Shown here: positions 1-7,002 of the stretch, piece after piece | Numbering within the stretch: position 1 is the first letter of the stretch | Layout of the letters: each line of letters opens with the position of its first letter | Assembly: GCA_043819555.1 (NCBI GenBank) | Contig: JBDREQ010000079.1 | Location: 1-7,002, forward strand | Direction: 5' to 3' | Origin: Candidatus Zixiibacteriota bacterium | GTDB lineage: Bacteria > Zixibacteria > MSB-5A5 > GN15 > JAAZOE01 | Length of the DNA: 7,002 nt | Made by a program: the position numbers

Positions 1-3000
1 TGATTTGGTTTTGGCTTGACATGGCTTGAAGATTTGCCGATAATTTGATGCAACGGAGGAGTGGCTGAGTGGTCGAAAGCGGCGGTCTTGAAAACCGTTG
101 TACCGCAAGGTACCGTGGGTTCGAATCCTACCTCCTCCGCCATAATTTGTAAGGTATTGAAGTGCAATAAATTACGCCATAGGTTCGAAGGTTTTCAAAC
201 CATTTTCTAACCAATATAACACAATTGAACGAATGCTCTTTCGCTCGTACGAATATCCAATATGTCCTGAAAATGGGCGGGGATTCGATTCCCCCACCTC
301 AAGTTAAACTAAAGTTGTTGTTTGATAATAAATTACGATCTAATCAAGTTCAGTGAATTAACCTCCACAAATTCGTTGTTATAGTAGCTTGTATCTACAG
401 TGTGTACATACAGCGCAAAACTATAATCTTACCGTGTTAATAGGGCCATAACTATTATAAGTGTAATTAATCCAACGAAAATTAGTAGTGGCCATATGCC
501 ACTTGTTTGCTTTTTTGGTTCCGAATTATCAGTCTGCTGATCATGCATGTTTCGCCTCCTTTACATTATTAGATATGAAATTATCTATGCCTTTATAGTC
601 TTTAATAATTTTAGTGCTCCGGCGCGGTCTGTCATTGCCTTCTGATATTTTTGGTATAGATTCATCGATAATCTTTGACAACGCATCATAAATGGCAAGC
701 ATTTCATCGCTATCACGCGAATCTGAACGGTACGTTTTACCGTCAAATGTCTTTAATAAAATGGTGCATTGATAACCATTGAGGTTTAACGGCGCATAAA
801 AGGCCTTTTTTAATTTCACTGCAAGAATATCTATTTGGGAGCCCCAAGGCTTCAAGGTGCCAAGTATAAGCTCTCGAACATTCTTTTCGATATGCCTTAA
901 GTCGCTTGTGATGCAGATATCTTCAATTTTCATTTCAAACCTCCTTTGAATCGTCTATCTCTTTCTTATTCTTTATATACGGCAATTCTAGCTATTTGAT
1001 TATTTCAAAATATAGTATTGACATTTCTATTGAGTCTAACTATCTTCTTTGGTATGGATTGGTTGAATTATCATCATCTTATGTATTTTTGGACGGTGGT
1101 ACGCAAAGGCGGACTGACTCCAGCGGCTGAAGAACTTCGGTTATCCCCTTCTACTGTCAGCACTCAAATTCAGCAACTTGAACATGTATTGGGATACAAA
1201 CTATTTGACCGATCAGGTAGGCAAATGATTGTCAATGATGTTGGTCAGGTTGTTTTTCGTTATGCCGAAGAAATTTTCTCACTTGGTCGTGAATTACAGG
1301 ATGCATTGGAAGATAGACCTGCCGAGAGACCAATTCGAGTTCAAATTGGCATAGCGGATGTTTTGTCGAAGTTATTCGTAGGCAAACTGCTGGCTCCGAT
1401 ACTGGGATCACCACAATCTTACCATTTGGTCTGTCGAGAAGATCATCCGGATAACCTGATTTCCCAGCTAATACTCCATGATCTTGATATCGTATTAACC
1501 GATTCGCCTTTAAGTCCAAACCTTAGAGTTAGAGGATTTAATCACCTTCTAGGCAGTAGCCCTCTCGCGGTATATGGTACTTCTTCAATGGTTGCGCGCT
1601 ATAAAGAAGACTTTCCAAAGTCGTTAAACGATGCTCCTTTCATACTGCCGGGCGATCGTTCTGAATTAAGGGGATCGCTTGAACGTTGGTTCGAATCTCA
1701 CAATATCCGTCCAAAAGTGGTTGCTGAGTGTGATGATAGCGCGTTAATCAAATCTCTTGGAAAGACAAATGTAGGGCTCTTTGTAGCTCCTCAAATTACG
1801 GGCAAAGAAACGATGCAACAGTACCGTGTCAAGGAGATTGGCTATCTTGAAAACATAGAGGAAAACTATTATGCAATCTCGATGGATAGGCGCATAAAAC
1901 ATCCGGCAATTCAGGCAATTGTTGAATATGCCAAGCGTAGCGTTTTTTGAGATTAACCGGTTATGTAATTATTGGAGGGTAGGAAAGTTGACTGAAAAAA
2001 ATAAAAAGAAGCTGATTTTGCCTGAGTCCTTGCCCTTTAAAGCCGAACATTATCGTGAGTGGCAGCAACGCCAGATAATGAGGATGGCTATTACATATTT
2101 GGCTCCGCTGATTATTCTGGTTGTTTACTTTCATTACCGATATATTGGTCTCGAGGCTGATAGTCATCGAATTCATCTAAGCGCTATTGCCGAACATCAG
2201 GCAAACACACTCGACCTGTTTATGTCAGAGCGCAGGGTAAACCTGGCGAATCTGGTGGATCATCCAAGATTCCTTGAATCACCAGTGTCTGAAGAAATGA
2301 CTGAATATCTGGCTGACCTGAAGCGCGTGAGCCAGGCATTTGTTGATATAGGATTCTTTGATTCCTCCGGCGCGCAAATTGCCTATGCAGGCCCCCATCC
2401 GTCTTTGGAGTCGCGCAACTACAGTAATGAGAATTGGTTCAAAACCTTAAAAGAGATAAAAAATAATTTTGTTATAACAGATGTATACCTTGGTTTTCGC
2501 CAACAACTTCATTTCACCATTGCGGTAAGCAGGACAATTGGCGATAGATTTTTAGCCCTCAGGGCTACTCTTGATCCGGCTCGTATGTTTGAATACATTG
2601 AATCCCAGCAATTGGCAGGTGATGTAACTACTTATATGATAAACCAAGAAGGCATTTACCAATTAGTTAAAGAGGAATTGGGATATCCTCTTGATAAATG
2701 TCCGATAATTGTTTCCTCGGACCAATCATCGGGTTTTGGCGAAATAAAATCAAAAAACGGTTCGCAACACTATGCTTTTTGGTGGTTGCACAATACCGAA
2801 TGGGCATTGATTGCGCAATCTATTCCCGGTACGGATTCATTTTTCAGTACCCCCAAATCTAAATCATTAATGGTATCATTGGCATTATTTCTAATCGCGG
2901 TCTTTGTGATTTTTAACAGAGCTGGAAAACTTGTGGAAATGCAAAAAGAGACCGATCAAACTCGGGCTCAATTGGAGCATGCCGCCAAGCTTGCATCAAT

Positions 3001-6000: not shown

Positions 6001-7002
6001 TTCATGAGTGACGGAGCGACAGTGTCCGCAATTGGTCCAATAACGGTACCAATGGCAACAATCAGCGGCACCCATCCATGGATGGTCGGGTTCGCGACTG
6101 CATTTGCATCCTCATTCGCTCATATGCTGATTATCGGAACTCCATCGAATGCTATTGTATATGCGATGGCTAAAGATCCTGTTACTGGGGAGCAGTTGGT
6201 AAAATTATCTGACTTCCTAAAACATGGAGCAGTAGTTCTGCTATTGTCATTCGCTGTTTTGTGGGGTTGGACGATATTTGGATATTGGAGATATATAGGA
6301 TTTTAGAAATAGAAAGGAAAAAGCCATGTCAGACAAAATTAAATTGTTGATTGTTGATGATGAGGAAAAATTTCTCGAGTCCATAGCCAAACGGCTTGAG
6401 ATGAGAGGTTTTGATGTTCGTACAGCGACGCGCGGAGCGCAAGCTGTGGAAATTGCACGAGAAGAGAAATTTGATCTTGCATTGTTGGATCTTAAGATGC
6501 CAGGAATGGATGGAAAGCAAGTATTGGAAATACTTAAGAAAGAACACAAACATATTGAAGTGATTATTCTAACAGGCCACGGTTCGATTGATTCAGCCAT
6601 TGAAAGTACCAAGCTTGGCGCTTTTGGGTATCTCCCCAAACCATATGAATTGGAGAAGCTGTTGGAAACCTTACAGCAAGCTTTCCAGGCTCGTATGGAA
6701 AAGAAGTTCAAAGTTGACCAAGCGAGAATGGACAAGCTCGCAGAGTTGGCGAAGGGACACAGTGCACTTGGCATCCTTCGCGAGATGAAACAGCTGGATG
6801 ACAGTGAGATGTAGACTTTCAGAGAAAGATAGTAGCGGTACAGCTTAGGTTACGATATAACATGTACTGAACGATACTTAACTTGACAGTCACTTACCTC
6901 TGAGAGGTTTTTGGTTTAGGCCGTCAGTTTCTCTTCATTCTCCAGATTTGCATTATTTGCCAATTCCATTCCGTCAGTAAAAGTCTGAATCGGCGTTTTG
7001 CC

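Follow-up and report, generated by a model that had tools for sequence, protein, structure and literature searches.

Our analysis leans towards the view that four genes in a 7,002-nucleotide stretch of a Candidatus Zixiibacteriota contig (the window, numbered as the contig was in the initial annotation) constitute a self-contained two-component module with a membrane carrier, rather than a promoter, as its output; the cargo is probably sulfate or a related sulfur oxyanion. The module comprises a sensor histidine kinase, a CBS-pair protein, a receiver (REC) fused to a carrier of the DASS family, and a second, receiver-only protein, REC2 (Table 1).

Table 1. Features of the four-gene module and its 3' flank in the window
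Feature	Position	Strand	Basis or remark
Sensor histidine kinase	1919..3682	+	Longest ORF 587 aa; Pfam dCache_1, HisKA, HATPase_c
Stand-alone CBS-pair (Bateman) protein, 188 aa	3703..4269	+	Pfam CBS 121-173; predicted model
REC-DASS fusion gene	4273..6306	+	677 aa plus stop
Receiver domain (aa 4-114)	4282..4614	+	Pfam; predicted-model structural match
Cytoplasmic linker (aa 115-148), conserved	4615..4716	+	Conservation in 37 core fusions; predicted model
DASS transmembrane helix 1, TM1 (aa 149-166)	4717..4770	+	Model helix, VcINDY structural alignment, hydropathy
TM1-TM2 insert (aa 167-230)	4771..4962	+	Model secondary structure, conservation
DASS core, TM2 to C-terminus (aa 231-677)	4963..6303	+	HMMER and structural alignments
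Receiver-only protein REC2, 162 aa	6326..6814	+	Response_reg is the sole Pfam family
Terminator-like hairpin with T-run behind REC2	6896..6908	+	Sequence scan, weak

The fusion at the centre of this module is genuine. It is encoded by one open reading frame with zero internal stops, in which Pfam recognises Response_reg (residues 4-114, E 5.8e-25, 88.1 bits against a cut-off of 30.2 for PF00072, with profile positions 1-110 of 111 covered) and Na_sulph_symp (230-673, E 5.2e-36, 125.1 bits against a cut-off of 27), together with a CitMHS match at 250-610; this intact frame with both families bears out the initial annotation, which had described a receiver and a DASS carrier in one protein. An assembly accident is ruled out by the presence of both families in 118 of the 120 best database matches (68-100% identity, nearly all of them 677 aa long), by full-length fusions in 74 of the 80 loci taken from genomes of other species, and by a collinear match to residues 1-677 in 60 of 285 phylum genomes. 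The REC label needs four changes on a tree of 46 DASS domains, implying that the fusion was made or lost more than once.

The junction between the two domains differs from the linker of about 110 aa originally described. Comparison of the AlphaFold model of the fusion protein (mean pLDDT 85.2) with VcINDY divides this region into a linker of 34 aa, TM1 and an insert of 64 aa, and the end-to-end alignment of the model with VcINDY, NaCT and NaDC3 means that it is TM1 from which the receiver hangs. In the model TM1 is a helix at 150-165, with a hydropathy peak at 147-173, and it lies within the structural alignment to VcINDY, which begins at chain residue 18. An extra 'TM0' at 149-166, which would invert the carrier, was considered and rejected, as the alignments to VcINDY, NaCT and Pho90 all start before this helix. 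The linker is predicted to contain short helices at 121-127 and 138-143 (pLDDT ~66), and its residues E129, W141 and G144 are invariant in 37 core fusions, where the mean top-residue frequency is 0.67 for the linker, 0.70 for the receiver, 0.56 for the insert (the lowest) and 0.79 for the DASS core (the highest). The insert, modelled as a small helix/strand module, is probably extracytoplasmic; it is missing from two REC-DASS forms (P0124 and P0158) and kept in two receiver-less relatives (P0128 and P0132).

The kinase carries dCache_1 (85-298), HisKA (362-430) and HATPase_c (477-584) domains, with hydrophobic segments at ~52-72 and ~312-341 on either side of dCache_1 and the H-box HEINNPL, which includes H370. 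Its true start probably lies further in than that of the longest ORF, since relatives match only from about residue 20-45. The CBS protein (AlphaFold model, mean pLDDT 85.0) has a helical insert of ~45 aa separating its two CBS motifs, and Foldseek matches it, with E values between 6e-9 and 1e-7, to CBS pairs that include CBSX2-AMP (4gqy), the cytosolic domain of MgtE (2yvy) and DarB (6yja). REC2 possesses the residues D11, D12, D55, T83 and K105, followed by a C-terminal tail of ~45 aa that has no Pfam match; it is 47% identical to the fused receiver over 119 aa and is the closest paralogue of that receiver in its own genome (106.1 bits, versus 69.8 for the next receiver). All four genes lie on the forward strand, separated by gaps of 20, 3 and 19 bases, in agreement with the operon proposed in the initial annotation. 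The hairpin behind REC2 may mark the end of this operon, although it is a weak candidate: the seven terminator-like sites in the window are no excess over shuffled sequences (5.4 ± 2.5), and counts from promoter and terminator scans of the window never rose above those of shuffles.

The order dCache kinase, CBS pair, REC-DASS and receiver-only protein is conserved as a cassette across 80 loci from several phyla. Among the loci that could be judged, a homologous kinase is found directly upstream of the fusion in 61 of 64, a CBS protein upstream in 60 of 73 (in two copies in 7), and REC2 directly downstream in 67 of 74. When 12 loci were scanned with Pfam, Response_reg was the sole family of the ORF at the REC2 position in all nine that have one, the ORF being missing at L066, L042 and L077. 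Related arrangements include unfused REC-REC-CBS-DASS modules at three loci (L016, L060 and L061), a REC-CBS fusion adjoining an unfused DASS gene (L035), a Usp-DASS fusion (P0129) and, on another contig of the same genome (C15), a CBS-DASS pair. Since conservation of REC2 within the cassette almost equals that of the kinase, the signal could instead flow in reverse: the carrier would be a co-sensor that informs the kinase of the state of transport, and the fused receiver, as a docking point or phosphate sink, would set how much phosphate reaches REC2, the real output. As the closest paralogue of the fused receiver, REC2 would compete with it for one kinase, and co-sensing by transporters and kinases has established precedents in the pairing of DctA/DcuB with DcuS and of BceAB with BceS. 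However, we regard this as unlikely: REC2 has neither an effector domain nor an identified target, the fused receiver stays in the 7 of 74 loci without REC2 (Desulfobacteraceae forms included), and the kinase has a periplasmic dCache sensor of its own. The independent fusion of REC and Usp domains to the same end of the carrier also fits regulation of the carrier better.

Regulation of the carrier by its own receiver is further consistent with the state of the phosphorylation pocket. In the predicted model the fused receiver adopts the (beta-alpha)5 fold of five strand-helix units, and it superposes on 3crn_A (Z 23.2, rmsd 1.7 over 128 residues) and on the phosphorylated NtrC1 receiver 1zy2_B (Z 21.9). 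The pocket is formed by the acidic pair D8 and D9, the phospho-acceptor D53 (codon 4429-4431), T81 and K103, which are kept in 117, 117, 118, 119 and 120 of 120 close homologues, respectively, every departure being an alignment gap; in a 42-sequence alignment K103 never varies, and conservation of D8, D9, D53 and T81 is 90% or higher. The aromatic residue is F100, with Y in most relatives. The initial annotation had left these acceptor residues unchecked across relatives and had allowed that the receiver might be degenerate, but the conservation of all five catalytic residues disfavours a pseudo-receiver. The same conservation weighs against the possibility that control is essentially transcriptional and the fused receiver minor or vestigial, for example an unphosphorylated dimerisation module. 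For this possibility speak an NhaR-like LysR regulator encoded just upstream in the window and the accessible text of PMC11887813, where, for Desulfobacteraceae, sensing of sulfate by a kinase is proposed to lead, via response regulators, to the formation of DASS and SulP transporters. It is nevertheless improbable: no DNA-binding response regulator was found within the cassette in the window and the 12 Pfam-scanned loci, sigma-54-type regulators being confined to the flanking regions of L077, L035 and L017, and the LysR gene, which accompanies only 3 of the 80 loci, was rejected as part of the system. The proposal of the initial annotation that transport itself is the output of the two-component system thus gains from the intact pocket, the accompanying kinase, the lack of a DNA-binding regulator and a domain order in which the N-terminal receiver precedes the carrier, as is customary for switch and effector; its description of such a switch as rarely documented has to be tempered, as discussed below.

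The carrier itself is predicted to retain the complete DASS fold, TM1-TM11 with both re-entrant hairpins. Residues 141-674 of the model superpose on VcINDY (5uld_A, chain residues 18-462) over 434 of 445 residues with Z 39.6 and rmsd 2.7, and similar scores are obtained for NaDC3 (8uvc_A, Z 43.2), NaCT (7jsj_A, Z 42.5) and yeast Pho90 (8r35_B, Z 41.1); for the VcINDY/SLC13 structures as a group, Z is 39.6-43.2 and rmsd 2.6-2.9 over 434-455 residues, the best fit being to inward-facing states. Against the NCBIfam model TIGR00785 'dass', the protein scores 180.7 bits, under the curated cut-off of 198.6. At the hairpin tips, S342-E343-H344 (nt 5296-5304) and S579-D580-G581 (nt 6007-6015) occupy the positions of the two SNT motifs of VcINDY in the HMMER alignment, and they are kept in 118-120 of 120 close homologues (E343 in 118; H344, S579, D580 and G581 in 120 each). 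Among 46 representative relatives (MAFFT alignment, 27-61% identity), SNT occurs at the first tip in none and at the second in one, and [E/D]-H is found at the first tip in 30, mostly plain carriers with no receiver. In VcINDY the SNT motifs bind substrate and Na+, and the accessible text of PMC7553777 assigns them a role in substrate binding and a share in the Na1 and Na2 sites. Both SNT asparagines are acidic in the fusion (E343 and D580), so that substrate and coupling ion are not readable from the classical DASS carriers, and the putative carboxylate-lined anion site is not obviously suited to sulfate. The loss of both SNT motifs and the low TIGR00785 score might also suggest a DASS domain that does not transport, acting as a membrane anchor or a ligand-sensing 'transceptor' for a membrane-bound response regulator, but this is very improbable given that the replacement motifs are almost invariant, that [E/D]-H is shared mostly with plain carriers, that no other part of the protein is as conserved as the core, which keeps its whole fold in the model, and that related DASS proteins of sulfate reducers are abundant in membranes and their expression tracks the sulfate level (accessible text of PMC5840216).

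For a transporting carrier under receiver control, regulated uptake of sulfate in a sulfate reducer is the best reading of the genomic context. Within the phylum, dsrA exceeds its cut-off in 66 of 71 fusion-bearing genomes versus 34 of 214 without the fusion, a link that runs across related genomes and is not independent evidence; the five fusion-bearing genomes without dsrA are 64-81% complete. Of ten further fusion-bearing genomes, to which other loci had led, 8 likewise have dsrA (one of the genomes being a phylum genome already counted), whereas it was not found over the cut-off in the fusion-bearing L017 and L063 genomes, which lie outside the phylum sample. The genome of the window itself encodes dsrA (577.9 bits, cut-off 392.85), aprA (891.5 bits, cut-off 641.75) and, adjoining aprA, ATP sulfurylase (sat, 291.7 bits). 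At 6 of 12 loci the variable flanking regions also contain sulfur genes, namely those for APS kinase, DsrC, ATP sulfurylase, TauE, a sulfatase, a rhodanese and a DsrMK-like pair. Sulfate, or a sulfur oxyanion related to it, is therefore the most likely cargo, and its uptake would serve dissimilatory sulfate reduction. As far as the accessible texts of PMC11887813 and PMC5840216 go, the assignment of sulfate to such carriers rests on family membership, protein abundance and expression. Neither the probable context of dissimilatory sulfate reduction nor the non-canonical binding-site motifs had been noted in the initial annotation.

These observations can be accommodated in a single scheme. The periplasmic dCache domain of the membrane-bound kinase would sense an external small molecule, perhaps sulfate itself, and the kinase would autophosphorylate at H370. 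The phosphoryl group may then pass to D53 of the receiver, which is joined to TM1 at its cytoplasmic N-terminus in what would be a dimeric DASS carrier of the elevator type, and also to D55 of the paralogous free receiver REC2. Phosphorylation would alter the conformation or pairing of the NtrC1/DctD-like receiver, and the conserved 34-aa linker could relay this change so that the carrier is either sped up or blocked. REC2 may act as a competing phosphate sink or as a second branch, and the CBS-pair protein may add an intracellular input such as adenylate, APS or the energy state. We put forward tentatively, as a possibility somewhat short of even, the stronger proposal that the histidine kinase gates the elevator-type carrier through the receiver on TM1 and so switches sulfate uptake within seconds and independently of gene expression, with the CBS pair and the free receiver as further inputs, and that switch domains such as REC and Usp can generally be plugged in at the cytoplasmic N-terminus of TM1 across the SEH/SDG branch of DASS carriers. 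Such gating would let sulfate reducers throttle the first step of sulfate respiration, a process that drives much of the carbon turnover in marine sediments, rapidly and without translation; it would supply a molecular basis for control of sulfate uptake at the level of activity, as well as a compact kinase-to-transporter part. Little study has been devoted to response regulators whose target is a membrane carrier instead of DNA, and the hypothesis is testable now, since the family is large (1,882 of 8,000 database candidates scored match the Desulfobacteraceae form at E <= 1e-50), extends over several phyla and has members in cultured species, Desulfobacula toluolica among them.

The closest named relative is the 691-aa protein of D. 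toluolica Tol2 (CCK80087.1, WP_014957420.1, UniRef100_K0NN26), known from its annotation name, 'Response regulator modulated sodium/sulfate symporter'. It belongs to another phylum (Desulfobacterota), yet is 59% identical (397/674) to residues 3-676 of the window protein and shares its architecture, length class, linker, TM1-TM2 insert, SEH and SDG. Unlike the window, the Desulfobacteraceae loci L071, L072 and L077 lack the CBS gene and an adjacent REC2. The idea of receiver-controlled transport is thus not new, being stated in the name of this homologue, and the fusion family is already annotated in sulfate reducers; the window reveals no new kind of system. It does contribute a member of Zixibacteria type, a link with dsrA, a corrected topology and binding-site motifs that are unusual. 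Our searches of the literature on receivers with DASS, symporter or transporter domains, on single-domain response regulators and on domain censuses found no paper on a receiver-carrier fusion and no experiment on one. The archaeal response-regulator census (PMC5847659) mentions no transporter, permease or symporter, and the terms histidine kinase, two-component, regulator, CBS, fused and receiver appear nowhere in the text of Marietou 2018 (PMC5840216).

The most similar gene clusters are those of Desulfosarcina variabilis 3be13 and other sulfate reducers, in which 'DASS-type sulfate transporters' are clustered with cache kinases and CBS proteins (accessible text of PMC11887813, Sci Adv 2025). 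These share with the window the cache-domain kinases, response regulators, CBS proteins, DASS carriers and a sulfate-reducing physiology, and that text likewise proposes that the kinase responds to sulfate as its effector and that CBS proteins provide a second level of control. However, the model offered there is transcriptional, via 'WalR type' regulators; its main text does not use the word 'receiver', its accessible part mentions no fused receiver, and one supplementary file gave no match to the terms sought in it, although Figs S21-S23 may show the fusion. The window differs in being a compact four-gene unit with a receiver-only partner in a Zixibacteria-type genome. With its clustered cache kinase, CBS protein and response regulators, and with dissimilatory sulfate-reduction genes in the host, the window cassette nonetheless matches the sulfate-reducer type.

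The carriers of the DASS family (TC 2.A.47; VcINDY and SLC13; PDB 5uld, 4f35, 7jsj, 8uvc) share the predicted fold of the window protein from TM1 to the C-terminus at 20-23% identity, but have SNT motifs, no fused regulatory domain and no 64-aa insert after TM1. A parallel in layout is provided by yeast Pho90 and Pho87 (PDB 8r33-8r35; accessible text of PMC2710535), in which an N-terminal cytoplasmic domain on a DASS-fold carrier regulates transport. Model residues 133-677 superpose on Pho90 chain residues 382-875 (Z 41.1), although at 17% identity and across different families. The yeast regulatory domain is SPX, eukaryotic and without a kinase partner, whereas Response_reg is the sole N-terminal Pfam family of the window protein, with no SPX; the likeness is thus one of fold and layout only. 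The SLC5/STAC kinases CbrA and CrbS likewise join a secondary-carrier domain to a two-component protein, but there the carrier is fused to the kinase as an input (accessible text of PMC9100948), whereas in the window it stands behind the receiver, in the output position.

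The window comprises the entire contig C79 (7,002 bp; host genome 3.35 Mb, 97% complete), with five genes on its + strand. The initial annotation had described a receiver fused to a DASS-family carrier, neighboured by a histidine kinase, a CBS protein and a second, stand-alone receiver. This observation is confirmed, with corrections: both Pfam families lie in one gene with a single unbroken frame, and the neighbours are present, with gaps of 20, 3 and 19 bases separating kinase, CBS gene, fusion (REC-DASS) and stand-alone receiver (REC2). A search of 5.8 billion clustered proteins recovered both families in 118 of the best 120 matches (68–100% identity, nearly all 677 aa), and in one-genome-per-species collections relatives are encoded at 80 loci, 74 of them full length. 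By the source names of its closest hits, the organism falls among metagenome-assembled Zixibacteria/GN15 genomes. Within the phylum, 60 of 285 genomes contain a collinear match to residues 1–677 (two copies in three of these), and 11 further genomes hold high-identity fragments interrupted by contig ends or stops. One phylum genome has a broken copy, with two TGA and two TAA codons within its N-terminal part, and the match in another contains one TAG; either case could reflect a pseudogene or a sequencing error. Among public records with the kinase–CBS–REC-DASS–REC2 cassette at 65–86% identity, many are labelled Ignavibacteriales or Ignavibacteriaceae (e.g. L004, L010, L012, L013, L015, L016); their nearest relatives carry Zixibacteria labels, and the taxon labels on these automated bins look unreliable. 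The longest kinase frame overlaps the end of the NhaR-like LysR gene, which neighbours the cassette at just three of the 80 loci (L002, L005, L008); in L005 and L008 it is adjoined by a frame 42–48% identical to the 130-aa ORF of the window.

Coordinates of the features discussed (loci are prefixed; entries without prefix are window positions)
Feature	Location	Strand	Note
130-aa ORF	541-933	-	no Pfam or NCBIfam match
LysR regulator, NhaR-like	1018-1950	+	NF008284 NhaR equivalog 238.7 bits vs cut-off 219
Histidine kinase	1919-3682	+	dCache_1, HisKA, HATPase_c
CBS protein	3703-4269	+	
REC-DASS fusion, 677 aa	4273-6306	+	Pfam Response_reg 4-114, Na_sulph_symp 230-673
Fusion: receiver	aa 1-114		
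Fusion: linker, 34 aa	aa 115-148		
Fusion: TM1	aa 149-166		
Fusion: insert, 64 aa	aa 167-230		
Fusion: TM2 onwards	after aa 230		
REC2, receiver-only, 162 aa	6326-6814	+	
Broken fusion copy	G049:C13:16278-18310		
Fusion match with one TAG	G165:C1:190403-192433		
Double-receiver protein, 286 aa	L035:10298-11158	+	
REC-CBS fusion protein, 296 aa	L035:13087-13977	+	after unfused carrier
C15 CBS-DASS pair	L096 2898-4427 and 4471-4995	both -	
DASS paralogue	L093:208-2076	-	
DASS paralogue	L091:1416-3281	+	
DASS paralogue	L092:1451-3292	+	
dCache kinase	L095 3-1703	-	
426-aa protein	L095 1754-3034	-	cytidylate-kinase-like domain (PF13189) + C-terminal receiver
733-aa SulP-STAS permease	L095 3289-5490	+	divergent from other two

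The most likely reading, which we favour with some reserve, is a two-component module with post-translational control of a carrier, probably a sulfate carrier. The acceptor residues of the receiver, previously left unchecked, are all present (D8, D9, D53, T81 and K103), each at least 90% conserved among 42 fusions of 31–87% identity, with K103 invariant. They are retained in 117–120 of 120 close homologues, all departures being alignment gaps, and the nearest receivers are of the NtrC1/AtoC/GlrR type; judged by sequence, the fused receiver looks active. Of the 80 loci, 64 have sufficient sequence for the kinase position to be assessed, and in 61 of these a homologous dCache kinase immediately precedes the fusion. 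A CBS protein separates the two in 60/73 loci (two copies in seven), and a receiver-only gene follows in 67/74. The genes flanking the cassette differ between loci. Neither the cassette of the window nor those of 12 Pfam-scanned loci contain a DNA-binding response regulator, and sigma-54-type regulators were seen only in the flanks of three of these loci (L077, L035, L017). Within the genome, the paralogue most similar to the fused receiver is REC2 (47% identity; 106 bits, versus 70 for the next receiver), which has its own D11, D12, D55, T83 and K105. Alternatively, the carrier and its receiver might tune signalling to REC2 without themselves being the output, which we consider improbable but the main rival. 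Under post-translational control of the carrier, the module would receive additional inputs through REC2 and the CBS pair.

The segment preceding the carrier match had been taken as a linker of about 110 aa, which does not hold. In an AlphaFold model built from a 42-sequence alignment (mean pLDDT 85.2, pTM 0.77), residues 141–674 align structurally to chain 18–462 of VcINDY (5uld_A; 434/445 residues, Z = 39.6), covering it from its first ordered residue onward, and the same holds for NaCT, NaDC3 and yeast Pho90 (Z = 41–43). Since the alignment reaches that first residue, the hydrophobic helix 149–166 is TM1 of the DASS fold rather than linker, leaving a true linker of 34 aa (115–148). DASS carriers have a cytoplasmic N-terminus, and only a receiver on that side of the membrane could encounter the kinase; we therefore infer that the insert 167–230 faces outwards. 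The linker is unlikely to be a loose tether, as suggested by its conservation in 37 core fusions (mean top-residue frequency 0.67 versus 0.70 for the receiver; E129, W141 and G144 invariant). TM1 and the insert are retained in the receiver-less relatives P0128 and P0132, and the insert is missing from the REC-DASS forms P0124 and P0158.

The same parts recur in other arrangements. Receiver and carrier are separate genes in second modules of the order REC-REC-CBS-DASS (L016, L060, L061), and in L035 an unfused kinase–REC-REC–DASS module lies downstream of the REC-DASS cassette, its 619-aa DASS protein standing between a double-receiver protein (286 aa) and a REC-CBS fusion (296 aa). In the metagenome protein P0129 (692 aa), of the same DASS clade, a universal-stress-protein domain (Usp, 5–152) takes the receiver's place. 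On a maximum-likelihood tree of 46 DASS domains (row P0141 left out as too short), four changes of the receiver label are required, as they are in each of the 200 bootstrap trees; one of the four depends on P0122, probably a truncated gene call. The receiver–carrier link has thus been gained or lost repeatedly, always at the N-terminus. The predicted fold of the CBS protein is a Bateman module interrupted by a helical insertion, similar to AMP-bound CBSX2, the cytosolic domain of MgtE, and DarB. On contig C15 of the same genome (L096, G000:C15:19000-26000), a DASS paralogue without receiver (509 aa) is immediately preceded by a gene for a CBS-pair protein (174 aa), with no kinase seen within these 7 kb, which suggests that the CBS protein is a partner of the carrier, not of the kinase. 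DASS paralogues of 613–622 aa, 35–37% identical to the carrier part, occur at L091, L092 and L093 and in the P0164 cluster; the N-terminus of the L093 protein, the only one translated, has an insert of ∼130 aa between TM1 and TM2. P0149 and P0164, representatives of similar length, show no Pfam family in their N-terminal extensions, and the P0164 cluster includes a 617-aa Desulfococcus multivorans protein. At L095 (G000:C65:1-8000) another kinase module adjoins a sulfate-type permease and is, like the cassette, without DNA-binding output; PF13189 genes are present in the flanks of L060 and L016 too.

VcINDY has two Ser-Asn-Thr motifs, located at its hairpin tips, which bind substrate and contribute to the Na1/Na2 sites (PMC7553777). 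By HMMER alignment, their positions are occupied in the fusion by S342-E343-H344 and S579-D580-G581, retained in 118–120 of 120 close homologues. Among 46 representative relatives (27–61% identity, mostly plain carriers), 30 have [E/D]-H at the first tip, and SNT is found in none at the first tip and one at the second. The replaced motifs, their spread in relatives and a TIGR00785 score below the cut-off place the fusion, on sequence criteria, in a large, uncharacterised branch of the DASS fold, and its substrate and coupling ion cannot be transferred from SLC13 carriers.

dsrA, aprA and ATP sulfurylase, each scoring above its cut-off, are present in the genome, together with two SulP permeases. 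dsrA exceeds its cut-off in 66 of the 71 phylum genomes with the fusion (none in 5) and in 34 of the 214 that lack it (none in 180), which amounts to an association rather than a test, given the lack of independence among related genomes; the five exceptions are 64–81% complete and three have partial dsr matches. Among ten fusion-bearing genomes reached via other loci, with labels that include Acidobacteriota, Phycisphaerales, Calditrichaeota, Polyangiaceae, Electryonea and Hatepunaea, eight have dsrA above the cut-off (one being a phylum genome already counted); the two exceptions are those of L017 and L063. The variable flanks include sulfur genes in 6/12 loci, and Zixibacteria have been listed with the dsr-bearing putative sulfate/sulfite reducers (PMC6018805).

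A 30.5-kb cluster of Desulfosarcina variabilis, with related clusters in 26 species, encodes 'DASS-type sulfate transporters' that are formed in abundance, along with CBS proteins and numerous two-component systems that have cache kinases (PMC11887813, Sci Adv 2025). It has been proposed there that the kinases sense external sulfate and 'WalR type' regulators act on promoters, with CBS proteins as a second level; the main text makes no mention of a fused receiver. Such DASS proteins have been detected in Desulfobacula toluolica membrane fractions, and in D. autotrophicum they change with the sulfate level (PMC5840216). The D. toluolica protein CCK80087.1 (UniRef100_K0NN26; 691 aa), named 'Response regulator modulated sodium/sulfate symporter', shares 59% identity with the fusion from end to end. 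The system as a kind is already annotated and partly described; the window adds a member from another phylum, the dsrA link, a corrected topology and the SEH/SDG motifs.
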